From IMG/VR virus record IMGVR_UViG_3300027747_003534, positions 32,001 to 96,000 of that record: a stretch of DNA of 64,000 bases, one strand, 5' to 3'. This document shows, one piece after another, positions 3,229 through 51,198 of this stretch. Below the pieces are notes generated by a model. It was not told where the DNA came from. It saw only the letters and a list, made by a program, of their open reading frames with translations, and searched no databases. Made by a program: the position numbers and the translations under genes. The stretch comes from a virus. Position 1 is the stretch's first letter, and each line of letters begins with the position of its first letter.

Positions 3229-3233
3229 TAACT

Positions 3234-14444: not shown

Positions 14445-15335
14445 ATGAAAACAGAAAATTTTAGTGTTGTTGTAGATGGCGTTGAAAATCATTATGTTGT
14501 TCGTTCTCCCTCTTTAAATGACCAAAGAGAAGCTCAAAAGGCATACAATCAGGCTTTTACTGATGCTATCAAGAGTAAGAGCATAGTACGAGCTAAAATG
14601 GATGATCTTCTAGAAGAACAGGGCTTATGGAATAATGAAAAACAGGCCAAGTTCACATCTCTGCAACAGGAATTACTAGACGGAGAAAAAAGACTTGCTA
14701 AGGGTGGTTTTAGTCTGAGCGACGCTAAGAAACTAGCTCTACAAATGAAAGAGATTAGATCAGAAATAAGAGATCTCATTAGTGTAAGAACCAGTTTAGA
14801 TAATCATAGCGCAGAAGGTCAAGCAGATAATGCCAGATTTAACTATTTAGTATCAGCTTGCGTGGTGTATAAAGATACTAATGAGCCTTATTTTAAGAAT
14901 TTGGAAGATTACCTAAATAAGTCAGATGATCCTGTGTCTTTATTGGGTGCTCAAAAATTGGCTAATATGGTTTATGGATTGGATAATAACTTTGAAAAAG
15001 GCTTGCCAGAAAATAAGTTTTTGCATAAGTATAAGTTTGTTGATGAAAAACTTCGTTTAATTGATAAGAAGGGCAGACTAGTTGATGTTGACGGAAAGCT
15101 TATTGATGAACGAGGACGATATATTGATGAGCAGGGTAATTATGTCGATAAGTATGGAAATAGGGTGGACGTTGATGGAGATTATGTTGTAGATTCAGAA
15201 CCATTCCTAGACGATGAAGGAAAACCAGTTGTTTTGGAAAAAGAAAAACCAGTTACGGAAGAGAATAAAACTGATGATACCAACAAAACCACAACTGTAC
15301 CAGAAGCAACTCCAGAAACTCCTAAAGCAGAGTGA
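14445..15335 (+). CDS. Putative tail assembly chaperone (G-like)
   Basis: Directly upstream of the TMP; RBS AAGGA; helical N-terminal part, C-terminal DxxG repeats and an acidic tail. Confidence 0.6.
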   Translation: MKTENFSVVVDGVENHYVVRSPSLNDQREAQKAYNQAFTDAIKSKSIVRAKMDDLLEEQGLWNNEKQAKFTSLQQELLDGEKRLAKGGFSLSDAKKLALQMKEIRSEIRDLISVRTSLDNHSAEGQADNARFNYLVSACVVYKDTNEPYFKNLEDYLNKSDDPVSLLGAQKLANMVYGLDNNFEKGLPENKFLHKYKFVDEKLRLIDKKGRLVDVDGKLIDERGRYIDEQGNYVDKYGNRVDVDGDYVVDSEPFLDDEGKPVVLEKEKPVTEENKTDDTNKTTTVPEATPETPKAE

Positions 15336-15421: not shown

Positions 15422-18400
15422 ATGAGCAAAGGATTTAATCTTACAGCAGAAATCAACTTGCGCGGTCCTTCAAATATAAGGACTGTTGTTGCGGATATTC
15501 GCAGGCAAATTGGATCTGTATCCGCAGATATTACTCCGGTAGTTACTAGACAATCTGTCCGTAATGTTGCTAGTGTAATAAGAAGTCAGCTGTCTAATAT
15601 AATATGTGATGTTAAGATCAAAGCCAATACATCATCATTAAGAAGTATTGGATCAGATATAAGAAGACAGTTAAGTGGGGTTAGTGCTAATATTAACGTT
15701 AGGGCCAATCAGTCATCAATAAGAACAATGGCGGCTGACATCAGAAGACAATTAGGATCAATTAATGCTAATGTTAATGTTAGATTCAATACTACTGCTG
15801 TTACAACATATAGTAACAATTTAAGAGGATTAAATGCTAATCTTAATCAGATAATAACCTCAGCCACCAATGCTACAGGAGCCATCAATGCTTTAGCTGC
15901 TGCAATGAGAAGTGCATCAGCTGCTGGATCGGCTATTAATAATACTGCTATAAATGTTGGAAATGTTAGCAGGGCTGCGAATAATACTAGAAATAGCATT
16001 ACTCTAGCATCCAATGAAATGGTAGAGTTTGGTCGTCAATCCGGCTTAGCATTTAGAAGATTTTCAGCTATTACAACTGTTACAAGTGTTATATATGGAT
16101 TAACAAATGCTGTTAGTCAGGGTGTTAAATCTTTTATAGATTTTGATTTGCAAATGACTCGCATATCTCAGGTAACTGGTGATTCAAGAAATAAATTAGC
16201 TGATGTGGCAAATACTATTACAGATTTATCTACTAAACTTGGTGTTTCTTCTAATGAGCTAACAACTACCACAGTAACTCTTGCACAGGCTGGTTTAACG
16301 GCTAAAGATACTGCTACGGCGCTCAAAGCTTTGGCTCTTAGTGCATTAGCTCCATCATTTGATGATATGAATCAAACTGTAGAAGGATCTATTGCTTTAA
16401 TGAGACAGTTTGGTATAGGAGCAAATCAATTAGAAATGGCACTAGGTAGTGTTAATGCTGTGTCTGCTAAGTTTGCTGTTGAAGCTAGTGATATTATTAC
16501 TGCTATTCAGCGTACTGGTGGTGTGTTTGCTGCTGCTAGTAGAGGAGTAAGCACAGGCACAGAAGCATTAAATGAATTTATTGCTGTATTTACCAGTATC
16601 CGAGCTACAACTCGTGAAAGTGCAGAAACTATTGCTACTGGTTTAAGAACTATTTTTACTAGAATTCAAAGAGCAGGAACTATCGAAGCATTACAAGAAT
16701 TTGGAGTTACATTAACTGATTTAGAAGGTAAATTCGTAGGTCCCTATATTGCGGTTCAAAGACTTAGTGAAGGACTAAGCAGATTAGATCCACGAGATCT
16801 TAAATTCTCACAGATAGTTGAAGAATTGGGCGGCTTCCGTCAGATCGGCAAGGTGCTACCACTTATTCAACAGTTCGCAACTGCTCAAGACGCATTAAAG
16901 GTTGCTCAACAGGGCCAAGGATCATTAGCAACCGACGCGGCAAAAGGACAATTAGCTTTAGCTATTCAGATTCAGAAAGTGAGAGAAGAATTTCTTGCTC
17001 TTATTCGTAGCATTGGAGATACTAGTAGTTTTCAAAATATTGTAAAAGTTGGTTTAGATTTAGCCAGCGCTTTAATAAAGGTGGCTGATGCCACTAAGGG
17101 AGTTTTACCATTATTAACTCTGTTTGCTGCATTTAAAGGAATCACTGCGGCCACTCAATATATAGGTGGTTTTAGTCAAGGAATCAGAGGAAATGGTGGA
17201 GGAGCCAGAAGAGCTAATGAAGGTGGTCGTATATATGCTTTTGCTAGTGGTGGATTAGTACCAGGATATGGAAATGGTGATACTGTATCGGCAAAATTAA
17301 CTCCTGGTGAGTTTGTGATGAGCAAGCCAGCAGCACAAAGCATAGGAGTTGGTAATTTACATTCTTTGAATAGGAGTCGTGGAGGATCTATATTCCCCAA
17401 AAATTATTATCAGGGTGGGGTTGCAGCTTTAAAATCACTGTCTCCAGGAGAAAGTGGAAATAGAATCTCAGACTATATAGATTATTACGAGAATGAAACA
17501 AGCAAGACCAGCAAACAAAAAACAGGAAGAAAAAATAAATTAAACAGACAATCACCGAAAATGCTTAGAGGTTTTCAGCTCAAAGATAATGTTAATTCCG
17601 ATATAGAGAGAAGAGTTATTGGGGAATCAGAAATAAAAGAAGCTGTTGCAAACAATGCGAATTTTAGACGCTATATTAATAGTAGAGCAGCCAAAGATAA
17701 GAGTAGAGAGTTCTATGCTGCTCAAGGCGTAGCTTTTGAGGAGTTTTTATTTCAACATATTCTTGAGGGAAAACAATATGAAAAAGCACCCAAAAACAAC
17801 TATCCTTTAGATTTTATACCAAAGACTCCCGGATTACCTCCAGTTGAAGCTAAATTTACTTACGAGCAAGTTCCTGATGCATTTATTTTAAACAAACGAT
17901 TAAGATATAACTTATTGCGTCGTAATAACGAAAAAATATCTCCTTTAACCAGGAAGCAGAAACCCGACAATATTCAATTGGGTCCAACAATTGTATATGA
18001 AATGGGACCTGGATTAAAAAACAAAATCTTTACTCCAAACTCAAGTGAAAGCCAAAAAAGAGGAAGAGAAGAAAGAGCTCAGAAGAGTTTATTAAAAATT
18101 GATAAACTTGGTTTAGAACGTAATAATGGTGGATCTATACAAAAATTCGGTATTGGTGGAAGTACTGACGCTATATCAACATATAAAGCAACTTCTATGA
18201 AACTTAATAGAAGTCTAATGCTTGGAACTCCATTAACTAAAGAAGAACAAAAAAATGTTAAAGATTTAAAAAAACAAACCACAGATAAATTACCAAAACA
18301 ATTATATTCTGGTATTGGAGAAAATAGACTCAATCTGATTAAAAATCAAGTTGGCGATAAGCTACCAAAATCGGTTGGCAAATCATTTACATTACCTGGA

Positions 18401-21400
18401 TTTTTATCTACTAGTTTAGATAGCTCTATAGCAATGGAATTTGCTCGTCAAGGACTTTTGAGTATTTTGACCAACCCCAAGAAAAAGGGTATTAATACTA
18501 ATAAACGAGTTAGTACAGATTATGATTTAGAAAAAGAATTTATATTACCACCAAACTCTAAATTCAAAATCTTAAGCGCAAAAGAAGAGCGAAGTTCTGC
18601 TCGACCCGGAAGTTCTTTAATGAGATCAAAAGCTAGTCTTAATGTTCAACAACTAGCTTCTGGTGGATCTATTCAGCGATTCATGGCCGGAGAGATGGTC
18701 AGAAGAACAAAAAAAGAACGGTTTAAAAAAATAACAGAGTCCGATGCTGCTAAATTAACAGCTTCTCAAATTATAACAGGCCTTACTACTGGACAGACCG
18801 GCCCCGTTAGAGTAGAGGGTATGGATGTTGGAATGATGAGGACTATTCTTGGTAAACGAAATACAACACCAGATATTCAACGCAAAAAAGATGAGATTCT
18901 AAAAGCTTATACCAGAAGAATAAACGGTGAAGTAGATCAACGTCTCGGAATTACTAATCAGAAACAAGCAGCAGGATTACTATTTGGTATTGCTGGTTTG
19001 TACGGCTCTCCATTTAAGCCAACTGATATGGTTGTTGGAGATAAAGGAGAACTTAAAAACATCACAACTGTTCAGGTGATGGGTGGTGTTCCTCGTAAAA
19101 AATTAATGGATAAGGCTGGCATAGGTATTGATGATCTAGATGCTTATGGTAAAGATTTTAGAAAATCTGTTAAAAAAGGAGCTAAAAGACTATTAGTATC
19201 GGATATTCTTAGTCAACTAGGTTTAGGTAAAGCGCTTTATGCTGACTTTGACAAAACATTAGTATTTGGGGCTGATAATCTTCCTGATCTACAGTCTTTT
19301 AACAACAAGAGACAGGTAGGTAGACAATTATTATCAGAAAAAGCTAGACTTAGCACTCTTGGTCAAAAATTAAGAGATTTATTGCTAGTTAAGCCTCAGC
19401 TGTCACCATATGTAAATGTACTAACAGCGCGACCACCCTCCACAGTTGGTCTTTTACAAGCTTTCCTTAAACGACAAAATCTTAATATACCTCGTTCTCA
19501 ATTTACCGGGGTTGGTGGTAATAATTTAAACGAATCTGCAATTGCAAAATTAAAAGCTGCGGAATTACCTCCCGGATCAGTTTTTGTTGATGATAATGGA
19601 AAAAATACAAAAGAAGCAGAACTTAAATCTAAATCACTAAAGGCTAAAGGTGAAGCTGGTATTAAAGTATTTAGATATAAAAGTGCCAGAAATCCGTTAG
19701 ATCAACCGGGTGAAGATACTGCTGCTGGTCTTGCATTTCAAGAATCATTAAGAGGACTTCTTTCAGACAAAAGAGCAATGGCAGCATTTGCTGAAACAGG
19801 AGGAAAGAGCATTGACTTTCCGCTTGGATTAGGAAAACGAGCAGCATTATTTGGTCTAAAACCAAACATACCAACAGATGCCAAAAGAACATTGAATGGT
19901 CCATCAACAGCAAAAGATAATATCACTAATTATCTAAAAGTTCGAGGTTATAATAGCGGTGGAATAATTCAAAAATTTGAAACTGGTGGAGCAACAGATA
20001 GTCTTAGACAATACCAATTGCGATCTAAAGATCTTCATTCTGCTGTTATTTCAAACAAACCAGACAAAACTAAAAGTAATCAGATAAAAGATCTTGACAG
20101 TTCAATGATTGATTCTTTGCCAAAAATACTTTATAGTGGATTTAAAGAAAATCGTAGAAAAATTATTGATCAAGATATAGATCCTAATAAAGACTATAAA
20201 TCTCAGTTAATGAATAAGACTTTTTCTTTTCCGTCATTTTTGTCTACTTCTATAAACTATGATAGTGCTAAAAGATTTGCTGGATCAAATGGAGGGGTAT
20301 TACACATAAGACCAACAGGTAAGGGTGCTAATGTTTTAGAAAGAACCGGTAATAAAGGAAAGAGTGCTCTTTATGATATGGAAGCAGAATATCTATTACC
20401 AAGAAATTCTAGATTTAAAATCAATAGAGTATTAGATACTACTGGACCACTAGGATGGAGATCAGATTGGGGTGCTCCAAATTTTCTAGAAGCTGAAGTT
20501 AAAAGTTTTAAAAATGGTGGAAACATTAGAAGATTTGCTGATGCTGGATTAGTACCTGCTCCTAAATTAATTCAAAGAGGAGGATTCAAGTATAGTCTAG
20601 AAGATATTATTAAAGCCGGTTTTACTGAAGCTCAGTTCATGAAGCAAATACCTGCTCCTGGTGGCTATGGTGAACAGTGGCAAATTGGTGGTTATGGAGA
20701 AGGCTCAATACCTATGCCTCCATCCCTACAACCATATAAAGCTCCACCATCTGTTGTTCAGGATCGGGTTGATCTTGCTCGATCAAATGTTCAAAATAGA
20801 ATGGCAGATGCGGTAAGGAGAGACGGACGCACTTTGAGAGATTACGAGGTTAGCAGTGATCAAAAGGCGTTCAAGAAAATGCGAGGATATGCAATAGGAG
20901 GATCCACACAGGATACTGTACCAGCATTAGTTAGCAATGGAGAAGCTTTTGTACCACCAGAAACAGCAAAAAATATAGGATATGACAAATTAAGAGAAAT
21001 GAACCAAGCAGATCGTAATGGTATGAGGTCATTTGCTGGTGGTGGAATTAGTTTATTTAAGGGACCCGGTAGCGGAACAAGCGACAGCATAGGACCTGTA
21101 GGATTGCCTGTGGGCGGATTTGTTATAAGAGCAGCTGCTACCAAAGCTTTAGGATTAAGTAAGGGCGGAGCCGTTCAAAGATTTGCTTTTGGAGGAAGTC
21201 CTAGAGCAGTACCAAATATTAGCGGCATGAGCGATGCTAGAGCATTATCAGTAGTTGGAGTTACAGATAATGTTACTGGTCAACTAGAAAATTTAGCTAC
21301 GGTATTACAAGAATTAGGTGTTAGATCAGGTGATTCTGCTAGAATTATTCAGAGCGGCATACAAGCAACATACCAACAAGCTATACGAGCAACAGAAGCT

Positions 21401-30400: not shown

Positions 30401-33400
30401 GCTAATAAGAGAACTCAAAGATCTGTAGTAATAGACGATTCTATACTTGATTTATTTGGCCGAAAGTTTGCTCCTATAACAGAAACAAGACCAGATGCTG
30501 TTCCAGATAACGGGAAAAAATTTACAGGACGTGAAGTTAGTGACACGGCTAGAGAAAATGATAAATTCCCATTTAGAACCAGAATAACTGGAGCTAAAGG
30601 AATTAATTCACAGTATAAGTCTGCATATTCTTATTATAGAAGAATACTAGGAGAATATAATTATCATAAAAATATTGGAAAATTAGATAGATATATAAAA
30701 GGATATAAAACCACAGCTACTGTTGCTAGAACTTTAGCTAGTGGTGGCATAGTATATGCATCTACTGGGGCTTTAATTCCTTATGCTCCCAAGGGCACGG
30801 ATACTGTTCCGGCAATGTTAACTCCTGGTGAATTTGTCGTTAACGCAAGATCAACTGCTAAAAATTTACCTCTACTAAAGTCTATTAATAATGGAGGAGT
30901 TCAAGGATTAAGTAGTGGGGGAGTGGCTTATCTTAGTAGGGGAGGACAACCAAATGATGTTTCATACGGTAGGTTTGAATTATCTGATGACCAAGCACAA
31001 TTTTCTCATAGATCAATCAATCCATTAACGGGAAATAGAACTCCTGAGAATGGTGATGATCTTGATAAAAAATATAGGATTAACTCTGGTATATATGACT
31101 ATTTGACCCTAAGAACCACGATGCCAGACTGGTTAACTTCGTTAAATAATTTAAGCTTCGATGATAATAGTATGCGCTTTTTTAGCGACGCTTCTTTTTA
31201 TAAGACCTTAACTCAAATAAGAGAAGCTAATGATTTAAGGAGTCTCCAAAGTCTATCATATAATTTTGTTAAAGGTTTTAAATATAGAGATTATAATAAA
31301 GATAATCGTCTTACTGGATTTGATTTTACTAGCCATCTTTCAAAAACGGACGGAATTTTAGGATTAATAGATCCTGATGTTGGAGGAGACCTTCAGCCGA
31401 AAGATTTGGTCAAATGGACAACAACAAAAGCCAAGCTCCAGGCAAAATCATCTGCTGCAAGAGTTGTTAAAAATTTAACTCCTGATCTAGAAAATCTAAG
31501 AGATATTCTTTCTGATCAGAAGCCTATGGGGAAAAATAATAATCCAGAGTTTAAAAATAGAAATCATTATGAGTCACCAGCAGCATTACTAAACAGCACC
31601 GTGAGCGAATGGAAAAAACAGAGACAGCAACAAAAAAACAGAGTAAATCTAAGACAAGAAGAGTTAACAGAAAGTAAAGATGGTCGTCAAATCACGATGC
31701 CTCCTCATCTCAATATGAATTTTGATGAAATTAATGTTGCTGATGTTGTAAAAGATATTCTTGCTAAGAAAAAGACCCCATATACGGAAAATCTAGTATC
31801 TTGGCTCGAAAATAATGTAAAAACAGTATCTGAAAAAGTAGCTGATTTGGTACCTGTTCCAAAGGCTAGTGAGGAATGGGATGCTGCTGATGCAGAGAGG
31901 CCGCGTGTTATTTTGGACCTTATTAAGAATGGTCCAGAAGCCTTTATGACTGGATTAAAGGGAGAAACCAAAGAGGGTAAAAGCAAGTCTCTTATTTATT
32001 CTCTACTAGCTCAGTCTGCTAGAATCCAAGGTATTAATAATCTTATCAAAGCTAGATCATTATTTTCTGGATCTGAGACTTCAGTCAGAAAAGGAGAAAC
32101 TAACTTTACCGGAGATATGGCAAGAAGAGATCGTAACTTAGTATATAAAGACCAGACCAGAACTCCTGAAAATTTTGAAGAAAGAGAAAATAACGTATCA
32201 AGATCAGGACAAGTAAAAACATTAACGCCAGCAGATAATTCTGCAATACCTGGGTCTGGACCAAACGGAGAGCAAACTTCAGATGAGCGAAGAGAAACTT
32301 CCAATAGGGCCAGGATGGCTAATGGCCGTGGAAACTCTGCTATTCGTGGCATTGAACTATGGGATACTAATAGGGATGGTAAAATCTCTTTTGAAGAATG
32401 GAATCAATTTCGTCCTGAGAAAGAACCCGAACTGCAAAGATTTTTTGGGGCTTCCACATTTGACGCATTAATGGGAGCTTATTCTTCAGCATTAAAAGGC
32501 TTGGGTCTTAGGGATAAAAATGCCACAGATAATTTCAAACCTAGAACTCTAAAAGACTATTTTAAAAATATTGATAAAGACAACACCGGATATATCGAAC
32601 AACATGAATTCTCAGATATGGTTGGTAAACCACTAGAATATCTTGATATAGAAACAGATCGAGAAGCAAAAGAACTAGGAGATACACTAGGAACACAAAG
32701 AGATCCTAGAGGCGCTCAGAAATTAGCCTATGATAAAATAGATAGAACTACCATCTCATCAGTAAAAAATTTATTAAAACAAGATTTTAAGGAATTATAC
32801 CCAGTTTCTTTCTCTAAGGCTTCGCACTTCTCAGAAAGAGAAGTAATACAACCACAGATAGATGCTCTTAGAAAAATCACAGGGGTTTCTGAGCTAGATA
32901 AGATAAATAAAAGAACAATCTTAGCAAATATAGGGTCTTCCTTAAATAAGGATAATAGTGATTGGGGTCTCTCTCCCAAAGTTGAGGAAAATCTTGGTAA
33001 TGTTATGGTTAAAATTAAGCAAGATTCTTTGCTATTTCCAGGAGTGGTTAATAAGGCATATACTCAAGGTCTTGCTACTCCTCAAGATCTGCTGCATAAC
33101 CCTGATATTAATTACGAGAAGACCCTTAAAAGGTCAGGAATTCCAGAAGACATATTTAAAACCATATGGCAAGACTATAAGCCAGTTTCTAAGTTTGATA
33201 ATCCGAATAGCAAAGACTCCTTAGACAAAATATATAAATTAAATAATGAGCTTAATTCTCAGGAAATAGGCGAAGACAAAGAAAGAACTACAGCAGCAGC
33301 ATTAAGTCAAAAATCAAACGCTAAAAAAAGATCAGCTAAAAAAGAATTAACAAAAAATACTTTAATAGAACAACTTCTCGTTAAAGCGAAATACTTTGAA

Positions 33401-36400
33401 CCAGATGTTTATAACAAGTTATGGCGTGGGCAGTATAAAGACTATTACGATGTGCCTGATCCAACTCTTGCTCGACACGTTGATATGTATAACACCCTGA
33501 TACCTTCCGGCGAAACTGGTCGTTTATCAAAGCCATCCGCAGATCAAGAGAAGGAGTATAGAAATAGATTAAAAGATATTAGTAAAAATCCAATTTATGC
33601 TAATAAAGGAATGCTTATCCCTTACCAACCCAGAGGAACTGATACTGTTCCTGCAATGTTGACTCCCGGAGAGTTTGTTATCAATAGAGCGGCCACCCAA
33701 CAAAATTTACCACTGCTACATGCTATTAATAGTGGAGCTAAAACTTATAGTAGTGGTGGAATTGTATATGCTGCTAATGGAGATTTGATAGGATCATCCA
33801 ATAGCTCCTCAAATAGTGATCTATCTAAAATCTCAGCAGTAGCATCTTTAGTTCCTAAAATCTTAAGTAAAGTAAAAGATTCTGATAAGATTAAATCTAA
33901 TCTCGATACTATTAATAATAACGTTATATTAAATCATAAACAAGGCAAAATATTAAACGATAAAATAAGTTTATTAAATAATAAAATTGATATGGGATTA
34001 GGAGATATTCAAGAAAATATTCCTACTGATAATTATTTGTCAAATATTCCTAATTATTTTTCAAATAATTTATCAAGAAGTTCATCATATGGATTGAATC
34101 ATGGGGGAATAGTTTATGCTGCGAATGGGAAGTTAGTAAATTATCAACCACAAGGAACAGATACTATTCCAGCAATGTTGACCCCAGGAGAATTCGTAGT
34201 TAATGCTCGGGCTACTAGTGCAAATCTTCCATTATTACAGACCATAAATAAGAGCAAGGGAGGCATTGCTTATTTACAACAAGGAGGTCTTCCTAATAAT
34301 AGAGATTTTTTAGAAAATAATAGAGATTTACAAAGATTTACAAGTCGTATTGGATTAAAAGCAGCTAGAGATATCATAAATCATAAAGATATGTATGATA
34401 TTTTTAATAATAATATGTTTCATGAAGACTTGGACGTTGATGCAAAAATAGTTGAGAGTAAGAGATATATCGACAGTCATATAACAGATAGGTCAAAAAT
34501 AGCTGCTAGAGAGCTAGTTAAACAAAGAATAAGGCAGAGACAGCGTTATTTAGACCAAATATTTACAGCTAATCGTTTTACCCTTGATGAAATAAGTTTT
34601 GGCGGGAGAGATCGTGAGCTTAGGTATACATTATTTGGAATAGAACTAAAAGAGATTTTAACTACACAATGGCGCAATGCTCAAGGGGAAAACTATAGGT
34701 TACAAGACGTTATCGAAGGAATCAACCCATCTCGCCCACCTTCTTTTTTTAATAATGGCGGAGTAGTTTATGCTCAAGATGGATTTGATCCATCAAAACA
34801 AAGAATGCCTACTTTATTCGATTTGCCCCAAGATTTTAGAAAACCACATAAACCATATAAGCCAGATGTTAAGCCAAAACCAGGATTAGCTGGAGCATCA
34901 ATAGGAGCACCAGAAAAAGTTAGTGCTACCACACAGAGAGCTATCGATAGTAAGGTTTGGGAACAGACACCTCAAGACATTCCCTATTGGTTTGGAACAA
35001 GAAAAGAATCAGAAACTGAAAGACAACAAAGAGTAATTGAGTACGGCTTGAACGAAAATCTACCTGAATGGTATAAAAATGCTGGAATGGCTTGGCAAAT
35101 GGTCGAAAATATTGCGCAAGGTTGGGCGGGTACCGGAGGAGCAGGTCATCAGCAGCCTAGATTAATGCAACGAGTAAAAGGATCACGAACACCACTAACT
35201 GGACAAAGACCGAACATTCCTGTTCCTGGTTATGGAGCTTCTAACCCTAATACTCTTAATGATTTAACAACATCAAATGTTACTAGACCAATGGTTAGGA
35301 CTGGAGATACTTTAGATAATGCTACTACTGATGCTGGTTTAAGACGCAGAGTCTCGTCGCCAAAAGATGCTCTTCAGAATGCGTCTACAAACAGTATGTC
35401 TAGACCTAAGCCAATATCAAATCAGGATAGTTTTGGTAACGAATCCACTAATGCTGGATCAAACCCAAAGCTACAATTAGCTCCTTTATCATCTAGTTTG
35501 GGAGGAACCACATCAAACTCCAATGTGTCACAGCCTGCTGTACCATCTAGTTCCTCATCCAAAGGTATTCTTGGTAAAATTTTAGAGTATATCAAAAAAC
35601 CTTTTGTAAAGCAACAAACTGATGAAGATCCACGGATGCCAGTATTTATGACAAAGAAACCAGATTCTGTAACTGAAGGAAATATACAGAAATTACTTTC
35701 AGATAGGCAGGTAGGATATACTGGCAGTTCGTTATTAGCAGGTAGAAATGCAAAACCCGGAATGTTAAAAGAAGTAGACAAATATCTGCGAGATGCTGGT
35801 ATAGATCCATCTTCTATGAAATTTGTTGGATCTGGTAGAGAATCGATGGTTTTTGATGCTGGTAATGGAAAAGTATTTAAACTTGGATATACACAAAATC
35901 GTGATGTTCAAAATATTTTAAAGTCTCCTGATTTAGAAGCTTTGTCTTTACCTTCCGATGTTCCAGGCGTAGCAGGATATACAGGAAGACAAAATATAGG
36001 ACCATATACTGTAGGCTTTCAACAAAGAACTCAAACGCTTGATCCAGAAGCTCAAAAACAATTTCAAACCGGCAATGTCGGTGCTGAAATGCAAAAATAT
36101 TTACGAGAAAAGGGGTACGAATGGAAAGACGCTCATCAGGGTAATGTTGGATACGCTACAGATCCGCGGTTTGGTATACCAACACCTATGGGATCATTAC
36201 AGGTTATTGATGGAGATGTTAGACCAATACAGGCGAAACAAAAAGGAGGCATGATATATGCTTCACAAGGAACACTAGTCAACTATCAACCTCGTGGTAC
36301 CGATACAGTGCCAGCGATGCTGACTCCGGGAGAATTTGTTGTTAATGCTCAAGCAACAAGACAAAATCTACCACTATTACAAAGCATCAATAAAAGCAAA

Positions 36401-38806
36401 GGAGGGGTAATTTATTCTGCTAATGGAGGTTTAGTAGGATTACTAAGACGAAAAAATGTTAATAGGATGGAAAACAAAGCACAAAGTACTAATGAAAGCA
36501 ATTCTTGGATAGGTGTTAATGGTGATGGGAAGCCTATGGATAAATTTGGCATGCCTATAGATAATTTAATGGATATTTATCCTTCTGATATTATGTTGGT
36601 TAATGCTCAGTCTAGGGAAAAAGCTTTGGAAGATATCCAAGCAAATACTAACTTTGATAAGGTAAAAGATACAGTACAAAAAGCCTCAGTCTTATGGCGA
36701 AAACAAAAATTAAACTTAGATGAAAATAATAATCGCAAAAGTGATAGTGATATTGTCTTAGACGAGCTAATATATCAAATAGCTTTTGAACCTAAAAGAT
36801 TTGATAAAAATAGCTATAGTTCAGATGCCGATGATACCGTTCTTGCGAAAGCAAAAAAGATAATGGAGGAAATCAATGGAACTGGAGGAGCAGTGCCTCC
36901 CGGAGCTGTTCCAAATGCTAATTTGCAGCTAACCAACACACAACTCTTACAAACTCAGAGAGTTAGTGATAGAATTTGGGAAAGAACAAGTTATTTAAAA
37001 CAAATTGTAAATAATACACAAAATGCGATAGATGTCTTAGGCCATAATCAAGCTAATAACGAAAAAAGAAATATTTTTGATGGAACAACTGTAGACGGAA
37101 CATCACAGTTTGACCCAGCAGCCATTGGAATATCTAATACGACAAATAAGCAAGGGACACAAGTCTTACAATCTCAAAATGATTGGGCAAAAAAAGAATT
37201 AGATTATATAAAAGCTGTTCGTGAGGAGATTATGACTCTCTCAACTCCAGAACAAAGAGCTAATTTAGCTCAAATGCCTAGACCGCCAGAAGTATTATAT
37301 GATGAGACAACACCTATCCCAATGAGATTTAATAGAGGTGGCGTTGTTTATGCTCAAGATGGATTTGATGCATCAAAGCTGCCTATTAATAAAAATAAAG
37401 GTGGTATAATTTATGCTTCACAAGGAACACTAGTAAACTATCAGCCTCGCGGCACCGATACTGTTCCTGCTATGCTAACACCAGGAGAATTTGTTGTTAA
37501 TGCTAAGGCTACGTCTAAAAATTTATCATTACTACAATCTATAAATAATGGAGTCCAGGGATATTCTAATGGAGGAGTGATTGATCCTATCTATAGGCCA
37601 AGGGGTGGATATACCCCACCAAGACCACCAAAACAAACATTAGAACAAAGACAACAAGCATACCAAGATCGTAGAGCAGCTGAAAAAACTGCTCGTGAAG
37701 ATAGAGCAACAGCTAGAAAAAATAAAACTACTTCATATGATCAAATGTTAAACGCTAGGGAAGAGGCTTACAGAGCCAACGTAGACGCTAGGGCAGATAA
37801 TAATAGATCTCCATTAGTAAAAATCTTCGAGGAACTAGAAAAACAAGTAAATGCTAATCCAGATAAATTTGAACTAGTTATGCCTGGCTCTGTTAGATCA
37901 GCTCTTGATGAGGATAAAGATGCGAAAGCAAAATCAGAATTCTATGAACAGCATTTTATGTCTTTGTCTCCAGAAGATGTATATAAGGCCGCTAAGGAGA
38001 TGTACTTAAAAGATCAAAGACAATTTAAATATTTAGAAGGTATTTATAATAGATCTAAACAAGCATTATTTCAATTTAGTAGATATCCTGCAATAGGAGG
38101 TAGAATAGTTGGCACAAGTGGTAAAACTGCCTTAGCAATACTTTCCAAGCAAGTTGAAGCAGCACATGCTCAGGGCTTAGTATTAGATAATGCTTGGAAA
38201 ATTTTAGGTCAAAAACATCCAGAATTTTTAGCCCAAAATAGCAATCGTCAAAATGCTGCTGGCCATGCCTCTGGAGGAATAATTTATGCTAATAATGGAA
38301 TGCTAATTCCTTATCAACCAAGGGGTAGTGATACTGTCCCCGCCATGTTAACGCCCGGAGAGTTTGTAGTCAATAAACAGGCAGCTCAAAATAATTTAGA
38401 TTTATTACAACAAATTAATAGTAAGAAATATAATCAAGGAGGCCATGTAGTCTATAAAGAAGCTGGAGGGCCAATACAACTTAAAAAACCAATATATAGA
38501 GCTAATGGGGGCATGACCGATGAAACTTCTGGAGGAGGCGGTGGTGTATCTAATAATAAAGATATGGGCCTAAATTTTGATGGATTAAGTCAGTTTACAG
38601 CAACATTTGGCAAGTTTATTCAACAACTAAATAGCCTAAAATTACCAGAAGTTATTAATATTCAAGGAAATCATAAAGTTGATGTTGTCATTAACGGAGC
38701 CGGAGCATTACAAGGTATGCAAGAAGGTATTAGAAACATGATTGTGGGAGAAGTTAATAAAGCCATGAGTAGCATAAGCAAACAAACAGATGGAGCAATA
38801 GCATGA
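15422..38806 (+). CDS. Giant tape-measure protein / cargo polyprotein (7794 aa)
   Basis: TP901-type TMP core near the N-terminus (FIDFDLQMTRISQVTG...LAQAGL...ETIATGLRTIFTRI); synteny tube-chaperones-TMP-baseplate; 11 DTVPAMLTPGEFV-type modules; embedded enzyme motifs. Confidence 0.9.
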   Translation: MSKGFNLTAEINLRGPSNIRTVVADIRRQIGSVSADITPVVTRQSVRNVASVIRSQLSNIICDVKIKANTSSLRSIGSDIRRQLSGVSANINVRANQSSIRTMAADIRRQLGSINANVNVRFNTTAVTTYSNNLRGLNANLNQIITSATNATGAINALAAAMRSASAAGSAINNTAINVGNVSRAANNTRNSITLASNEMVEFGRQSGLAFRRFSAITTVTSVIYGLTNAVSQGVKSFIDFDLQMTRISQVTGDSRNKLADVANTITDLSTKLGVSSNELTTTTVTLAQAGLTAKDTATALKALALSALAPSFDDMNQTVEGSIALMRQFGIGANQLEMALGSVNAVSAKFAVEASDIITAIQRTGGVFAAASRGVSTGTEALNEFIAVFTSIRATTRESAETIATGLRTIFTRIQRAGTIEALQEFGVTLTDLEGKFVGPYIAVQRLSEGLSRLDPRDLKFSQIVEELGGFRQIGKVLPLIQQFATAQDALKVAQQGQGSLATDAAKGQLALAIQIQKVREEFLALIRSIGDTSSFQNIVKVGLDLASALIKVADATKGVLPLLTLFAAFKGITAATQYIGGFSQGIRGNGGGARRANEGGRIYAFASGGLVPGYGNGDTVSAKLTPGEFVMSKPAAQSIGVGNLHSLNRSRGGSIFPKNYYQGGVAALKSLSPGESGNRISDYIDYYENETSKTSKQKTGRKNKLNRQSPKMLRGFQLKDNVNSDIERRVIGESEIKEAVANNANFRRYINSRAAKDKSREFYAAQGVAFEEFLFQHILEGKQYEKAPKNNYPLDFIPKTPGLPPVEAKFTYEQVPDAFILNKRLRYNLLRRNNEKISPLTRKQKPDNIQLGPTIVYEMGPGLKNKIFTPNSSESQKRGREERAQKSLLKIDKLGLERNNGGSIQKFGIGGSTDAISTYKATSMKLNRSLMLGTPLTKEEQKNVKDLKKQTTDKLPKQLYSGIGENRLNLIKNQVGDKLPKSVGKSFTLPGFLSTSLDSSIAMEFARQGLLSILTNPKKKGINTNKRVSTDYDLEKEFILPPNSKFKILSAKEERSSARPGSSLMRSKASLNVQQLASGGSIQRFMAGEMVRRTKKERFKKITESDAAKLTASQIITGLTTGQTGPVRVEGMDVGMMRTILGKRNTTPDIQRKKDEILKAYTRRINGEVDQRLGITNQKQAAGLLFGIAGLYGSPFKPTDMVVGDKGELKNITTVQVMGGVPRKKLMDKAGIGIDDLDAYGKDFRKSVKKGAKRLLVSDILSQLGLGKALYADFDKTLVFGADNLPDLQSFNNKRQVGRQLLSEKARLSTLGQKLRDLLLVKPQLSPYVNVLTARPPSTVGLLQAFLKRQNLNIPRSQFTGVGGNNLNESAIAKLKAAELPPGSVFVDDNGKNTKEAELKSKSLKAKGEAGIKVFRYKSARNPLDQPGEDTAAGLAFQESLRGLLSDKRAMAAFAETGGKSIDFPLGLGKRAALFGLKPNIPTDAKRTLNGPSTAKDNITNYLKVRGYNSGGIIQKFETGGATDSLRQYQLRSKDLHSAVISNKPDKTKSNQIKDLDSSMIDSLPKILYSGFKENRRKIIDQDIDPNKDYKSQLMNKTFSFPSFLSTSINYDSAKRFAGSNGGVLHIRPTGKGANVLERTGNKGKSALYDMEAEYLLPRNSRFKINRVLDTTGPLGWRSDWGAPNFLEAEVKSFKNGGNIRRFADAGLVPAPKLIQRGGFKYSLEDIIKAGFTEAQFMKQIPAPGGYGEQWQIGGYGEGSIPMPPSLQPYKAPPSVVQDRVDLARSNVQNRMADAVRRDGRTLRDYEVSSDQKAFKKMRGYAIGGSTQDTVPALVSNGEAFVPPETAKNIGYDKLREMNQADRNGMRSFAGGGISLFKGPGSGTSDSIGPVGLPVGGFVIRAAATKALGLSKGGAVQRFAFGGSPRAVPNISGMSDARALSVVGVTDNVTGQLENLATVLQELGVRSGDSARIIQSGIQATYQQAIRATEADIRRARLAGASAEQISQAENQLADIRRQAQQDIQTRRTLGGLSGNQLQSIESNAQEERDRIRTNTRNRLAARGMSQEDINTRLQENAGAIDRQAYSRASSRAGVNLRANGLTGDDAQRFVRQSMGDPRILRQMDDQLRQQLRSSTAYTTASRTQQRQMSQSVEEEIRTRKDIVNKLARQRGQQAPGGDQRGNFGGMLGLSFGLQGIGSLLAQQINASASSSNASTAGAIQGGVTGLATGGMLVGGLQDMLGSRLSPAVSKLLGGFGLLATLAASVGQAFIEARNAAIEFEKNFQQKKLETAISDSQQLFEKLNTNIKNVDIQRSLASKLAEAGEAAKAGIEANNKLAKAFWVNLFDAFGSADQGAASQRSEILDKKGIMAYFRSTDLFGGGDKGRSKEYQSLIPEKARENSKSFAETSKLTTDLIGAKIQSGSSVEDIFKDPAWKKQAEVIARANAAVEQEILSIKNNANISDVEKEARINNIIAINAEQTIRQQASVIERQQQLKSLDNTINVYTRSLERMFQNMEQSIGRASFSLEQMSKDIDLASDSLQGQAKVGNIALTAINALQNPRAYSDQTVSNSRNVAAESFGIRSPEMVSLLGVGEKIESTVMSTINKSVNKNPGITEEALGSIVGRDVKEALANLSLPPDLVEKLSGEVGNVLKDFKKSGDEKLDYTQLSEKLGQLNKVVDSSRRAQEVAIKALEHYQNALNVYTQNINKTIDLQISANQRLRKATDIVADSELSLAKTLGKNISLENARTMVNSKVSAKTGGATNPNDIFDSINKLENTRVVQQAEQRSAGERGLSGQADFIKFTKNLSDTNIGLRENIDALKYLADNTDIAASAMEKIQEAQQKSSGRASFIEKLVTSTPEELNGLSSAFQRLQNNANGQINTINRSTGAQRAYYEALQNGASMMEAMKAAQAAFVNERKETLGALNDILPFLGNNQQAGNIKANVLESMLQESGMGVSPVFQQILNTLRNPELDPATQAAIAEYREGNNLQARANSLLAQLDSNLARDIANQSAKALANALSDVKINFEGSELKDLVNLVQQINGKLPLGAAPAAGKASGGVIYAAAGRAIDFKSQGTDTVPAMLTPGEFVVNRAATQSHLPLLNAINSNKYSSGGAVRYYSSGGYVSQNFKEEYKKNSDDLVQSKEKYIDPRSAAFREVKSVYAGPDKFVRGAQPKTIMAPVATASSGRASLDSIKSEDGINNLYLGEAPAILVEKNAHNQDVFNYGVINRPRAHLLDPLGSVVDKPFDTKNITKNKFIEYKNSFNQKLINSDLDSSTIVSSMPAVNDIKDIPESLISDQFYSPNVISNLPVGMIVTRNKTLGALSWNKESTEHAKVLKIYRLASDYADVSVVSNEDQGYYKIKSDLKMSDSSAQDRIKILTGDNSWITEKDNIKNIIKTQELNLKDLKQTQTFTSVDPDPTNPVFNNLFKAEDPNLSNLRQKLEILYSGAEGISLTGNELNFFNPSALSEDKENNITLLHVLNSKYKPILDKSLNSKQQADKIKTTFPKLMVGGAGLNNLPDADYKWARGYEFGIYDVADMGKMKTFPWVANEDPSVISQDIQAAIDNQAEQLKTKYGISTKPVSDFGSYKLKLPNPIGDVDLPYHMQYTEYTGPQIATDPSKADPNGFNLGANLNKALLITPNNKNPLSPYSQFKKYAQSTAYVDKILTGDEIFDKSHIELDKIPDFTTLAKGNIDRNQRDQLKQNLKGVQYSIDLDSLIDHTNHPILKNIPLFEDSPPNKQSYVFNIGEYLSTVADKVFTDRDNAAIKSVGEIDDKGQLADDTIKDNKLPDAVKNLARLSLGVFGRKRVPGLPGNWLYNSIRGIIQKPFKNSGVAQQAAGYTSGIFNNFGGYLSKLAPMTRNPNIYQQLKELFTLGSGAAMAFTGLASGDTRMIGQFQKLNLNAEDLFRSLGGASLFGRISSTALSGDYKAILGQQLEGAKIKTVGANGTLSLVSADKAIPEKYNDLVNIAFNPYNEFPSKDTRKDIIEKLTTDMINATDQVGMSYFDPNTQRFLYGNMTSLYNWYGGNGAWEGQDYFFDKNVDPDNAKRTQQVIDSFSGQDGQDAYTKGNIAHTTLGFASRYGSLPTDKWFVQRREAGLNAEARAVTDPNASKDPLRFATGGVVYAQEGQHINFQPRGTDTVPAMLTPGEFVINKAATQSNLPLLHAINNGGAKAYSNGGPVYLARGGLTVKEHFKPLDTNIFDSLDIDKNSILEDNEMPKNSILRYMADYRKGADNKLTKKELEEYNTDYDSHIDNYLSLDAQKKYNNINPQKQKLNGSFQLNNGDRISQIQFIQTYEAANKIGKQKSKWGARNTLEENFYSGDPNYPFSQATYDLEAHNNKLRLGVGPFNSKAFGYGVAQQIIPALLSLAGGGVGFALTAPFTPAAQIGGTIGGAIVGDQIGQVINEMIYNGFPSSWKKDINKKIEKYPESYEIGQWTGFAADIAMGGFADDFITKSASGLVKKKLTRQAIDEAIKSGSSLNKLIQVGNDTIPIEKTVDDLAESTGKEAASNSKKVNKSKSKKSEKAENKAKIDSLLKNMKIIGDEYNSKIGEAYNKGILRKYDSLAAGDIASAIQKTGDVRNQAAKFHFDDLLKSSPDYVDPSLLTKLTDNSPIYIAAQSQAKETFSRLGIDVSDDFGKLDANKMFDEYFNKEYDILSKNPLNEAAARQKQSILDEIAQKYDIDPSDFKRLKDKLDDIAVRPRRPGFKTIYGLTKTAIMIARMIKDRKIEQKKAQPYDMPEAQTVPAVADKAEAAASPNKDEPKTAETTPPKPQVVKPKDVGNLPKYWDELSYKEYLDTLIKSGKNPEIPDKKLFTTSAIYTKGKRTTALDSRDTTGIVGGNRVSLPKDPKEKAKLDAQINNIGQKLYTSSEIAYDSYSRLVTGKNKNIPLGDIIKGDLIDNYRQSIESMHELMSITNLDKFGTINFKLDKPLPGQSSNKKLGDIIDTLKAVRKGYKNDIVPSLVNEDAEPKEGETPEDANKRTQRSVVIDDSILDLFGRKFAPITETRPDAVPDNGKKFTGREVSDTARENDKFPFRTRITGAKGINSQYKSAYSYYRRILGEYNYHKNIGKLDRYIKGYKTTATVARTLASGGIVYASTGALIPYAPKGTDTVPAMLTPGEFVVNARSTAKNLPLLKSINNGGVQGLSSGGVAYLSRGGQPNDVSYGRFELSDDQAQFSHRSINPLTGNRTPENGDDLDKKYRINSGIYDYLTLRTTMPDWLTSLNNLSFDDNSMRFFSDASFYKTLTQIREANDLRSLQSLSYNFVKGFKYRDYNKDNRLTGFDFTSHLSKTDGILGLIDPDVGGDLQPKDLVKWTTTKAKLQAKSSAARVVKNLTPDLENLRDILSDQKPMGKNNNPEFKNRNHYESPAALLNSTVSEWKKQRQQQKNRVNLRQEELTESKDGRQITMPPHLNMNFDEINVADVVKDILAKKKTPYTENLVSWLENNVKTVSEKVADLVPVPKASEEWDAADAERPRVILDLIKNGPEAFMTGLKGETKEGKSKSLIYSLLAQSARIQGINNLIKARSLFSGSETSVRKGETNFTGDMARRDRNLVYKDQTRTPENFEERENNVSRSGQVKTLTPADNSAIPGSGPNGEQTSDERRETSNRARMANGRGNSAIRGIELWDTNRDGKISFEEWNQFRPEKEPELQRFFGASTFDALMGAYSSALKGLGLRDKNATDNFKPRTLKDYFKNIDKDNTGYIEQHEFSDMVGKPLEYLDIETDREAKELGDTLGTQRDPRGAQKLAYDKIDRTTISSVKNLLKQDFKELYPVSFSKASHFSEREVIQPQIDALRKITGVSELDKINKRTILANIGSSLNKDNSDWGLSPKVEENLGNVMVKIKQDSLLFPGVVNKAYTQGLATPQDLLHNPDINYEKTLKRSGIPEDIFKTIWQDYKPVSKFDNPNSKDSLDKIYKLNNELNSQEIGEDKERTTAAALSQKSNAKKRSAKKELTKNTLIEQLLVKAKYFEPDVYNKLWRGQYKDYYDVPDPTLARHVDMYNTLIPSGETGRLSKPSADQEKEYRNRLKDISKNPIYANKGMLIPYQPRGTDTVPAMLTPGEFVINRAATQQNLPLLHAINSGAKTYSSGGIVYAANGDLIGSSNSSSNSDLSKISAVASLVPKILSKVKDSDKIKSNLDTINNNVILNHKQGKILNDKISLLNNKIDMGLGDIQENIPTDNYLSNIPNYFSNNLSRSSSYGLNHGGIVYAANGKLVNYQPQGTDTIPAMLTPGEFVVNARATSANLPLLQTINKSKGGIAYLQQGGLPNNRDFLENNRDLQRFTSRIGLKAARDIINHKDMYDIFNNNMFHEDLDVDAKIVESKRYIDSHITDRSKIAARELVKQRIRQRQRYLDQIFTANRFTLDEISFGGRDRELRYTLFGIELKEILTTQWRNAQGENYRLQDVIEGINPSRPPSFFNNGGVVYAQDGFDPSKQRMPTLFDLPQDFRKPHKPYKPDVKPKPGLAGASIGAPEKVSATTQRAIDSKVWEQTPQDIPYWFGTRKESETERQQRVIEYGLNENLPEWYKNAGMAWQMVENIAQGWAGTGGAGHQQPRLMQRVKGSRTPLTGQRPNIPVPGYGASNPNTLNDLTTSNVTRPMVRTGDTLDNATTDAGLRRRVSSPKDALQNASTNSMSRPKPISNQDSFGNESTNAGSNPKLQLAPLSSSLGGTTSNSNVSQPAVPSSSSSKGILGKILEYIKKPFVKQQTDEDPRMPVFMTKKPDSVTEGNIQKLLSDRQVGYTGSSLLAGRNAKPGMLKEVDKYLRDAGIDPSSMKFVGSGRESMVFDAGNGKVFKLGYTQNRDVQNILKSPDLEALSLPSDVPGVAGYTGRQNIGPYTVGFQQRTQTLDPEAQKQFQTGNVGAEMQKYLREKGYEWKDAHQGNVGYATDPRFGIPTPMGSLQVIDGDVRPIQAKQKGGMIYASQGTLVNYQPRGTDTVPAMLTPGEFVVNAQATRQNLPLLQSINKSKGGVIYSANGGLVGLLRRKNVNRMENKAQSTNESNSWIGVNGDGKPMDKFGMPIDNLMDIYPSDIMLVNAQSREKALEDIQANTNFDKVKDTVQKASVLWRKQKLNLDENNNRKSDSDIVLDELIYQIAFEPKRFDKNSYSSDADDTVLAKAKKIMEEINGTGGAVPPGAVPNANLQLTNTQLLQTQRVSDRIWERTSYLKQIVNNTQNAIDVLGHNQANNEKRNIFDGTTVDGTSQFDPAAIGISNTTNKQGTQVLQSQNDWAKKELDYIKAVREEIMTLSTPEQRANLAQMPRPPEVLYDETTPIPMRFNRGGVVYAQDGFDASKLPINKNKGGIIYASQGTLVNYQPRGTDTVPAMLTPGEFVVNAKATSKNLSLLQSINNGVQGYSNGGVIDPIYRPRGGYTPPRPPKQTLEQRQQAYQDRRAAEKTAREDRATARKNKTTSYDQMLNAREEAYRANVDARADNNRSPLVKIFEELEKQVNANPDKFELVMPGSVRSALDEDKDAKAKSEFYEQHFMSLSPEDVYKAAKEMYLKDQRQFKYLEGIYNRSKQALFQFSRYPAIGGRIVGTSGKTALAILSKQVEAAHAQGLVLDNAWKILGQKHPEFLAQNSNRQNAAGHASGGIIYANNGMLIPYQPRGSDTVPAMLTPGEFVVNKQAAQNNLDLLQQINSKKYNQGGHVVYKEAGGPIQLKKPIYRANGGMTDETSGGGGGVSNNKDMGLNFDGLSQFTATFGKFIQQLNSLKLPEVINIQGNHKVDVVINGAGALQGMQEGIRNMIVGEVNKAMSSISKQTDGAIA
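15473..15790 (+). repeat. About four 27-aa repeats at the TMP N-terminus
   Basis: IRTVVADIRRQIGSV, VRNVASVIRSQLSNI, LRSIGSDIRRQLSGV, IRTMAADIRRQLGSI. Confidence 0.8.
17720..18010 (+). other. PD-(D/E)xK nuclease-like domain within TMP
   Basis: GVAFEE (17726), YPLDF (17801), VEAK (17843). Confidence 0.6.
18161..18650 (+). other. ADP-ribosyltransferase-like domain 1 within TMP (VIP2/Alt-like)
   Basis: LYSG (18302), FLSTS (18401), EKEFILPPNSKFKI (18530). Confidence 0.8.
19235..19680 (+). other. HAD-superfamily phosphatase domain within TMP
   Basis: Motif I DFDKT (19244), motif II LTAR (19421), a Lys, motif IV FVDD..N (19583). Confidence 0.75.
19715..19945 (+). other. Second PD-(D/E)xK nuclease-like domain within TMP
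   Basis: GLAFQE (19727), IDF (19811), TDAK (19874). Confidence 0.5.
19991..20505 (+). other. ADP-ribosyltransferase-like domain 2 within TMP
   Basis: LYSG (20129), FLSTS (20237), EAEYLLPRNSRFKI (20381). Confidence 0.8.
32363..32615 (+). other. EF-hand pair within TMP
   Basis: Canonical 12-residue loops DTNRDGKISFEE (32363) and DKDNTGYIEQHE (32573). Confidence 0.7.
35750..36225 (+). other. Minimal protein-kinase-like domain within TMP
   Basis: Gly loop GSGRES (35828), VFK (Lys at 35879), catalytic loop DAHQGN (36128), IDG (36206). Confidence 0.7.
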
Positions 38807-51191: not shown

Positions 51192-51198
51192 GTTATCA

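Follow-up and report, generated by a model that had tools for sequence, protein, structure and literature searches.

The window analysed here is a stretch of 64,000 nucleotides (nt) corresponding to positions 32001-96000 of a 161,520-bp IMG/VR virus record (IMGVR_UViG_3300027747_003534), which is rated 100% complete. A single open reading frame (ORF) of 7,794 codons, located at 15422-38806 (+) of the window, codes for a product of 7,794 amino acids (aa), which appears to be the tape measure protein (TMP) of an uncultured, presumably long-tailed freshwater phage, expanded with exchangeable cargo. We consider delivery of this cargo at infection to be its most likely function and put the probability at roughly 0.6. 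The protein combines a scaffold shared by a large family with two regions of cassettes, which are separated by a repeated module and are gained, lost and moved at this module among close relatives; several of the cassettes resemble enzymes with cytoplasmic substrates. The 23.4-kb gene occupies 14.5% of the genome, and such a heavy investment in one gene argues for a strong selective benefit.

A single reading frame codes for a giant tape measure protein

The preliminary description of this DNA, made from its letters without database searches, had proposed one uninterrupted ORF in the TMP position, with a TMP core at the N-terminus, a second helical, ruler-like block and a short TMP-like C-terminus. 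The single ORF is borne out by an independent assembly, which covers 19.9 kb of it without a difference, and by the other reading frames, where the longest ORFs within 15422-38806 reach only 113 and 119 aa. In Logan contigs of the source run, window positions 19000-34796 and 34982-38900 recur with 0 differences, 0 gaps and an even depth of about 16x, and a 245-nt unitig bridges the two segments. Short "joints" seen in this comparison were considered as possible rearrangements and rejected: their sides are only 20-21 nt long and they come from other contigs sharing module words. The identical 7,794-aa protein was found on three contigs, exact small contigs are present in a second freshwater sample, and a third sample holds a relative of about 92% identity. 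No RNA holder is listed for the stretch.

The N-terminal part matches the Pfam family PF10145 (PhageMin_Tail) with 77.5 bits (cut-off 33.2) and is also matched by eight TMP PHROGs, in agreement with the proposed core. Together with the C-terminal module and tail discussed below, this core supports the assignment of the protein to the TMPs of the TP901 type. The proposed second ruler-like block (block C) is also present: it is conserved in nearly all homologues and has one hydrophobic segment, while its helical character is suggested by composition only. The 992-residue block D was modelled by AlphaFold2 (AF2) with a predicted local distance difference test (pLDDT) score of 80.2. Fold searches used the whole model, so single domains may have escaped; they gave nothing significant in the PDB (Foldseek, best E 0.25) and BFVD (best E 0.036), TM scores of at most 0.30 in the ESM Atlas and only generic helical bundles in a VIA wide search (Z <= 10.5, residues 649-772). 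No stand-alone block D homologues (545-1,736 aa) were found by a word-indexed search of limited sensitivity.

A tblastn search with aa 1806-4200 gave 0 matches among 50,697 phage records, so no cultured phage there has the conserved middle of the protein. The N-terminal core matches only distant TMPs among these records, e.g., those of the SPbeta group at about 26% identity. Membership in the "moraphages" lineage (PMC12619734) was weighed and rejected, as the paper reports no TMP at all.

A repeated module separates the cassettes

With a hidden Markov model (HMM) built from the protein's own copies, we located ten modules of about 75 aa each (Table 1). The module opens with a GG strand (GG[IV][IV]YA), continues with the core GTDTVPAMLTPGEFVVN and a short helix-like part (ATxxNLPLLxxIN), and closes with another GG strand. 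An 11-aa GG mini-motif, GGxIQ[KR]FxxGG, was found at aa 903, 1081, 1513, 1699 and 1915, and aa 662-1925 are fenced by such single GG strands instead of full modules. The protein is built of discrete cassettes, orphans included, which are bounded by these motifs, as the preliminary description had proposed.

The core is identical in the 8 canonical copies, but the DNA encoding the copies is only about 78% identical and the longest word common to any two of them is 23 nt. Since the same peptide is encoded by divergent DNA, every canonical copy is held by purifying selection on the peptide, and recent duplication or gene conversion does not account for the likeness of the copies.

The module is also matched by PHROGs 25241 and 17300, in a part of each profile that lies about 70-110 aa from its C-terminus. 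Lambda gpH is matched at residues 733-792 by a family HMM derived from 530 copies of the module, with 16.5 bits, a score that is weak on a database-wide scale. The gpH match has both GG strands and the GEFV core (FATGG...GEFVF...ATGGYV pattern); it lies within gpHC, 61 aa from the end and about 40 residues beyond the glycine-rich stretch that contains the gpH cut. As the module is found near the end of these proteins, the last module with its 111-aa tail is an ordinary TMP C-terminus, as proposed earlier, and the other nine modules are internal copies of this C-terminal module. The ten-copy profile also finds two module copies in the TMP of mycobacteriophage Douge. Three module copies compared with Pfam matched no family even at E<=10; Tape_meas_lam_C (PF09718) was matched neither by them at this threshold nor by the whole protein at E<=0.01, and T5 pb2 is not matched by the module HMM.

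Among 1.84 billion cluster representatives, the module profile matches 16,455 proteins at E<=1e-3; 851 reach E<=1e-30 and are multi-copy. In the matches listed, the 7,794-aa protein is first by score and second longest, and its ten matching stretches tie the highest count. A prediction of the module as a complex of three copies scored 0.01, with the module's own fold uncertain, and has no bearing on self-association either way.

Cassette turnover among relatives

At least 169 homologues of 4,300-7,900 aa are encoded on viral contigs of 100-240 kb, and nearly all of them have PF10145 and several modules. We cut 120 family proteins at the modules and clustered the resulting 797 pieces. Among the 138 clusters obtained (88 of them singletons), clusters 0, 1, 2 and 3 correspond to the scaffold. 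The order of the parts is fixed: core, enzyme cluster, block C (about 1,200 aa), block D (about 1,000 aa), variable cassettes and C-terminus.

The cassettes themselves are not a fixed colinear set. The two relatives without cassette E (Table 1) are 59-79% identical to our protein in the flanks (aa 1817-4199 and 5102-6289); taken together with the relative without cassette F, the range for the flanks is 59-81%. In relative P0002 everything between modules 4 and 9 is replaced, cassette G excepted. The kinase-like cassette, C-proximal in the 7,794-aa protein, is N-proximal in relatives P0009, P0072, P0073 and P0087. Lengths differ by as much as about 2,300 aa between relatives with 77-94% identity in the parts they have in common. 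Homology breakpoints, taken as the ends of high-identity alignments, fall within 20 aa of a module in 90 cases out of 136 (14.7% expected; such ends are not independent), and most of the remaining ones are grouped around three of the GG mini-motifs (aa 903, 1081 and 1513). Whole cassettes are therefore gained, lost and moved at the module or GG motif, a behaviour that the preliminary description had suggested looking for. These alignments indicate that relatives exchange whole cassettes at the fences, and the module would serve at least as a standard joint where recombination swaps cassettes without harming the protein.

Cassettes of relatives P0049, P0113 and P0084 have matches to DnaJ, SNase (PF00565), SHD1 and AAA_30, and some relatives' proteins are annotated at source as MlaD-like or thermonuclease.

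Enzyme types among the cassettes

Two nuclease-like domains, two ADP-ribosyltransferases (ARTs), a HAD phosphatase, a kinase and an EF-hand domain had been proposed for the protein. The ARTs, the phosphatase and the EF-hands were recovered as such, the kinase at the level of motifs, and one of the two nucleases was found.

In B1, the residues D136, E148 and K150 do not vary among 11 homologues, and the AF2 model places this triad at strands 137-139 and 147-150, after the helix 103-119, with pLDDT about 90. Language-model leads for B1 are type II restriction enzyme clusters (0.84-0.87). A PDB profile search of its alignment gave 0 matches, and the fold-search lists were filled by HAD matches. 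The triad and its placement support a PD-(D/E)xK nuclease-like domain; a second nuclease-like domain was not found.

ADPrib_exo_Tox (PF03496) matches the protein twice (47.4 bits, cut-off 23.4), and a profile of 28 ART sequences matches Iota toxin Ia (E 4e-6), CdtA and Vis. The STS serine (S82) and both glutamates of the ExE motif (E123 and E125) are invariant in the 28 sequences. The cassette ARTs are a divergent clade, conserved as if active and putatively binding NAD+.

The phosphatase cassette B3b has the four HAD motifs (motif I, DFDKT, at aa 1275-1279, then ITARP, K and DD), which are invariant or nearly so in 28 homologues, and a confident AF2 model with a Rossmannoid HAD fold. Foldseek matched it with probability 1.00 to the HAD domain of the Legionella effector Lem4 (E 2e-4) and to phosphoserine phosphatase (PSPH). 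The best VIA-align matches were the 3'-phosphatase domains of T4 Pnkp, Pnkp1 and T4 PNK (Z 11.8, 11.0 and 10.9, next match 9.5), with a root-mean-square deviation of 3.0 over 125-128 aligned residues. A PDB profile search of the HAD alignment without motif I found nothing. B3b is predicted to be a capless HAD phosphatase, with the T4 Pnkp 3'-phosphatase as its nearest match, and of the kind acting on macromolecular ends. No stand-alone homologues of B3a joined to this domain (231-735 aa) were found by the word-indexed search, which has limited sensitivity.

EF-hand_1, EF-hand_5 and EF-hand_6 of Pfam match cassette F above cut-off at aa 5648-5734 (EF-hand_1 with 32.6 bits, cut-off 25.4), and both loops, DTNRDGKISFEE and DKDNTGYIEQHE, are canonical 12-residue Ca2+ loops. 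In the kinase-like part of cassette H, the G-loop, K81, D164 and D191 are invariant in 7 homologues, and language-model leads are Kinase-PolyVal and T7 kinase clusters (0.93-0.95); it has no Pfam or PDB sequence match, and the PDB profile search of its alignment came back empty. No recognisable family accounts for cassettes E, G, I and J, for most of F or for the first 450 aa of H. Searching the PDB with aa 600-4200 and with aa 4100-7794 as single sequences gave nothing meaningful, and about 60% of the protein is without recognisable family or fold.

The catalytic residues of the ART, HAD, nuclease-like and kinase-like domains are invariant across homologues of 23-40% identity. By their motifs, several cassettes appear to be enzyme types with cytoplasmic substrates, namely ARTs (NAD+), a capless HAD phosphatase, a PD-(D/E)xK nuclease and a kinase-like enzyme. 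A Pfam scan of the protein found no cell-wall or peptidoglycan hydrolase or other envelope-acting domain, and the relatives' cassettes gave the same result.

Table 1. Parts of the 7,794-aa protein and their positions in the window
Feature	Window position (strand)	Residues	Basis or remarks
TMP core, TP901-type	15422..17200 (+)	1-593	PF10145 at aa 265-469; hydrophobic segment 560-578; kept in 116-118/119 homologues
Module copy 1, degenerate	17201..17404 (+)	594-661	own-copy HMM
B1, PD-(D/E)xK nuclease-like	17405..18127 (+)	662-902	PLD...VEAK
B2, putative ART 1	18164..18661 (+)	915-1080	PF03496; profile to Iota Ia, CdtA, Vis; STS and ExE invariant
B3a, alpha/beta domain	18698..19231 (+)	1093-1270	always N-terminal to HAD domain
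B3b, predicted capless HAD phosphatase	19232..19957 (+)	1271-1512	DFDKT, ITARP, K, DD; fold
B4, putative ART 2	19994..20515 (+)	1525-1698	as B2: Pfam, profile, STS/ExE motifs
B5, orphan	20552..20836 (+)	1711-1805	
Module copy 2, degenerate	20837..21061 (+)	1806-1880	own-copy HMM
Scaffold block C, ruler-like	21062..24592 (+)	1881-3057	hydrophobic segment 2250-2268; aa 2400-3100 in 118/119 homologues; composition
Module copy 3	24593..24814 (+)	3058-3131	own-copy HMM
Block D	24815..27790 (+)	3132-4123	beta-rich N-terminal and helical C-terminal part; in 95/120 family members
Module copy 4	27791..28021 (+)	4124-4200	own-copy HMM
E, orphan	28022..30718 (+)	4201-5099	Gly-rich hydrophobic segment 4375-4393; absent from relatives P0004 and P0005
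Module copy 5	30719..30946 (+)	5100-5175	own-copy HMM
F	30947..33556 (+)	5176-6045	two canonical EF-hand loops at aa 5645-5734; absent from relative P0003
Module copy 6	33557..33784 (+)	6046-6121	own-copy HMM
G, Ser/Asn-rich spacer of 97 aa	33785..34075 (+)	6122-6218	
Module copy 7	34076..34291 (+)	6219-6290	own-copy HMM
H	34292..36223 (+)	6291-6934	protein-kinase-like part aa 6740-6934, nt 35639-36223
Module copy 8	36224..36433 (+)	6935-7004	own-copy HMM
I, orphan	36434..37375 (+)	7005-7318	
Module copy 9	37376..37609 (+)	7319-7396	own-copy HMM
J, orphan	37610..38242 (+)	7397-7607	recurs next to C-terminus in 16 relatives
Module copy 10	within 38243..38806 (+)	7608-7683	own-copy HMM
Module copy 10 with 111-aa tail	38243..38806 (+)	7608-7794	canonical TMP C-terminus; tail kept in 75-79/119 homologues

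Proposed delivery of the cargo and its alternatives

TMPs are ejected and form a trans-envelope channel (PMC12617516). The scaffold of the family (N-terminal core, block C, block D and C-terminal module with tail) would do the ordinary jobs of a TMP, that is, start tail assembly, fill the tube and exit first at infection. Two cargo regions are inserted in this scaffold: region 1 (aa 662-1805) with small enzymes between GG strands and region 2 (aa 4201-7607) with larger cassettes between full modules. As a TMP is expelled ahead of the DNA, the cargo most likely would reach the host envelope or cytoplasm before the phage genes are expressed, and the enzyme cassettes would then modify host proteins or nucleic acids. 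We favour delivery because the recognised cargo belongs to intracellular types, a wall hydrolase was not detected, TMPs exit first and there is a precedent in phage P23-45 (see below). We infer the ejection of the cargo, its site of action and any cleavage of the chain.

The preliminary description saw in this protein a magazine of host-takeover or anti-defence enzymes. Its architecture, the turnover of the cassettes and the intracellular-type enzymes agree with this idea, but recognisable enzymes make up only a minority of the cargo: most cassettes of the protein have no recognisable family, and the 84 representative cassettes analysed in relatives (about 98,000 aa) match only EF-hand, ART, SHD1, AAA_30, DnaJ and HIGH_NTase1_ass. 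The term therefore fits a minority of the cargo.

This paucity of families is one of several points that weigh against delivery of active enzymes. The region-1 arginine of ARTs ("YRR" in Ia) is replaced in the cassette ARTs, the sequence being Y-S in 24 of the 28 and Y-T or Y-N in the rest, with a basic residue 4-5 positions further on in most of them; these domains also model poorly (AF2, pLDDT about 30). A peptidase able to free the cargo was not found: the protein has no HExxH or HxxEH motif and no peptidase match in Pfam, and the S78 prohead-protease family (Peptidase_S78) has no match in the genome. The tube protein, chaperones, hub and tail type were not recognised in family searches of the genome. 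It is not obvious how the lumen of a tail tube would accommodate three or six copies of folded domains of 200-1,000 aa. For at least one cassette, the EF-hands point to a place outside the cytoplasm that is rich in Ca2+. Finally, both the entry of the cargo into the cell and the activity of the cassettes are things that we infer.

The EF-hand loops lead to the alternative that the cassettes act outside the cytoplasm, as parts of the tail tip or of the trans-envelope channel, in Ca2+ sensing or in binding and penetration of the envelope, and not in host takeover. The hydrophobic, Gly-rich segments at aa 560-578, 2250-2268 and 4375-4393 would suit such a role, the very large proteins encoded downstream (1,462, 1,672 and 2,278 aa) could form a big tip housing the C-proximal cargo, and the enzymes known from within TMPs have the wall as their target (T5 pb2, 10.1101/2022.09.20.507954). 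However, the protein and the relatives' cassettes gave no match to peptidoglycan hydrolases or to other families acting on the envelope, and the ART, kinase-like and Pnkp-like reactions depend on cytoplasmic substrates (NAD+, ATP or nucleic-acid ends). We consider this alternative unlikely.

It is rather improbable that the whole chain is a pure ruler setting a very long tail (about 1.17 µm at 1.5 Å per residue), with the cassettes as extended filler and their enzyme features as relics or incidental. Phage P23-45 does combine a 5,002-aa TMP with an "extremely long tail" (PMC10770324), tail length is stated to scale normally with TMP length (Katsura and Hendrix, 1984, as cited in PMC12619734), and most cassettes have no recognisable function. 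Filler would not, however, be expected to keep the ART serine and ExE motif, the HAD motifs and the nuclease D/E/K triad invariant at 23-40% identity. In the models, block D and the confidently predicted parts of region 1 form compact domains and not extended chains, and the differences of up to about 2,300 aa between relatives 77-94% identical in common parts would imply jumps of about 0.35 µm in tail length. The predicted tail would measure about 0.3 µm if the scaffold alone is the ruler and about 1.2 µm if the whole chain is.

The third alternative is an assembly-time polyprotein, cut at every module or GG strand during tail maturation into a dozen polypeptides, some of them perhaps outside the virion. 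The presence of the module in lambda gpH just after the Gly-rich region of the gpH cut (PMC12617516) speaks for it, as does the position of the only GGMMY of T5 pb2, which lies 2 aa after the cut inferred from the lengths of pb2C (92 aa) and pb2 (1,219 aa) (PMC12617516). Cleavage in T5 also parts an enzyme domain from the ruler (10.1101/2022.09.20.507954). On the other hand, the cut site and protease of lambda are unknown (PMC12617516), the T5 position comes from fragment length, the lambda match is of low score and the module HMM does not match T5 pb2. A conserved 75-aa module far exceeds the size of a protease site, and no candidate protease was found by the motif and Peptidase_S78 searches mentioned above. 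Such wholesale processing during assembly therefore has a low probability in our opinion.

False joining of several genes over the repeated modules by assembly or annotation is practically negligible: assemblers can be misled by repeats, but the module DNA is too divergent for this, 19.9 kb were recovered by independent assembly with no difference at even depth, and the identical protein on three contigs is accompanied by 168 large homologues.

Returning to cargo delivery, the module may be the element beside which TMPs are cut, by analogy with lambda gpH and T5 pb2. We speculate further, and consider it doubtful, that the module and GG strands are a general TMP release signal, the determinant of the gpH and pb2 cuts. 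By using it ten to fifteen times, the phage would obtain a dozen proteins, several of them enzymes, from a single ejected chain inside the host. If this were true, the tail would be a programmable, recombination-editable protein injector with a payload differing between near-identical phages.

Comparison with known systems

Polyvalent proteins come close to the cassette content described here: they are very large, are thought to be delivered with the DNA and carry ARTs, kinases, nucleases and orphan domains in variable order (PMC5512222), and Kinase-PolyVal is among the language-model leads for our kinase-like cassette. The 7,794-aa protein likewise holds several unrelated effector-type domains (two ART, HAD, PD-(D/E)xK-like, kinase-like and EF-hand) in one chain. 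However, polyvalent proteins are delivered from the head or by conjugation and typically have a zincin-like peptidase (MPTase) for self-processing (Iyer et al., 2017, PMC5512222), whereas the 7,794-aa protein has a TMP chassis, no HExxH and a TMP-specific module as fences. TMPs are not mentioned in the polyvalent-protein paper (PMC5512222).

A functional precedent is gp96 of P23-45, a 5,002-aa TMP with an N-terminal virion RNA polymerase acting in the host (PMC10770324), which proves by experiment that working cargo can be carried on a TMP. Both are giant TMPs fused to enzymes that work, or in our case would work, in the host at the start of infection. Unlike our protein, gp96 has a single N-terminal enzyme and no repeated module, cassette array or turnover; the two show no sequence relation, as aa 1806-4200 matched nothing in the phage collection.

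Lambda gpH is cut into gpH* and gpHC and T5 pb2 into pb2* and pb2C, and both fragments stay in the virion (PMC12617516; 10.1101/2022.09.20.507954); the C-terminal region of gpH is unresolved in cryo-EM maps (PMC12617516). With the family profile, gpH carries the module once, near the C-terminus. These proteins have one module or one cut, in contrast to ten modules and five GG mini-motifs here. In T5 pb2, the zinc carboxypeptidase motif region (aa 1128-1150, GEHGTEVV) after GGMMY resembles a shortened GG strand followed by a GEFVV core; we treat both the place of GGMMY beside the proposed cut and this resemblance to the module as leads only.

Mycobacteriophage TMPs also have functional domains inside the chain. 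That of TM4 reportedly carries an embedded peptidoglycan-hydrolase motif, a finding attributed to Piuri and Hatfull in 2006. Gp16 of Douge (PDB 8zdo, PMC13033339) has its two module copies in the unresolved part. The cargo of these TMPs is wall-degrading and of one or two kinds, while the 7,794-aa protein has about a dozen cassettes of intracellular type or orphan.

No description of module-fenced cassette arrays in TMPs was found in open-access papers and bioRxiv. As TMP-carried or delivered enzymes already have precedents (P23-45 gp96, T5 pb2, polyvalent proteins), the 7,794-aa protein is an extreme variant.

If the cargo is delivered, long phage tails would be protein injectors as well as DNA conduits, with a payload rewritten by recombination at a standard joint, and would provide a phage counterpart to polymorphic toxins and type VI secretion system effectors. 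The cassettes would then constitute a big untapped pool of early host-takeover or anti-defence proteins, since almost all of the 138 cassette clusters in 120 relatives are without known family. The module also bears on the old question of the site and mechanism of the cuts in lambda gpH and T5 pb2; the presence of ten copies in one protein should bring this question far more within reach of mass spectrometry.

Genomic surroundings

The TMP gene lies in a block of tail genes whose order is kept in a 189-kb relative: upstream products of 175, 214, 314, 355, 346, 110 and 288 aa, then the TMP, then very large proteins. In the position of tail chaperones, the ORFs 14101-14427 (108 aa) and 14445-15335 (296 aa) have no family match. 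An (AAT)n tract gives the 108-aa ORF a run of nine Asn at its end; the frame of the 296-aa ORF opens only 3 nt before the stop of the 108-aa ORF, and a frameshift overlap of the G/GT type is not evident. A scan of the genome with Phage_sheath_1 gave no match.

Three very large proteins of 1,462, 1,672 and 2,278 aa are encoded directly downstream of the TMP (38803-43191, 46173-51191 and 51163-57999) and have 0 matches in Pfam and PHROG. Presumably, they belong to the distal tail or tip complex and are sized for an unusually big tip.

The 5'-open ORF at window positions 1-3228 is the end of a giant gene (genome 22848-35228) for a 4,126-aa protein, the N-terminus of which has collagen-like GxxGxxG and repetitive fibre-like sequence; by these features it is probably a very long tail fibre. 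It is followed at 3234-9701 by a fibre-like cluster including a collagen-repeat protein, two Laminin_G_3/fn3 proteins and one with Mtd_N (major tropism determinant N-terminal domain); an Mtd_N gene is also located upstream of the TMP in relative L004. The C-terminus of a 153-aa ORF at 59112-59573 weakly matches DUF6171 / phrog_13558.

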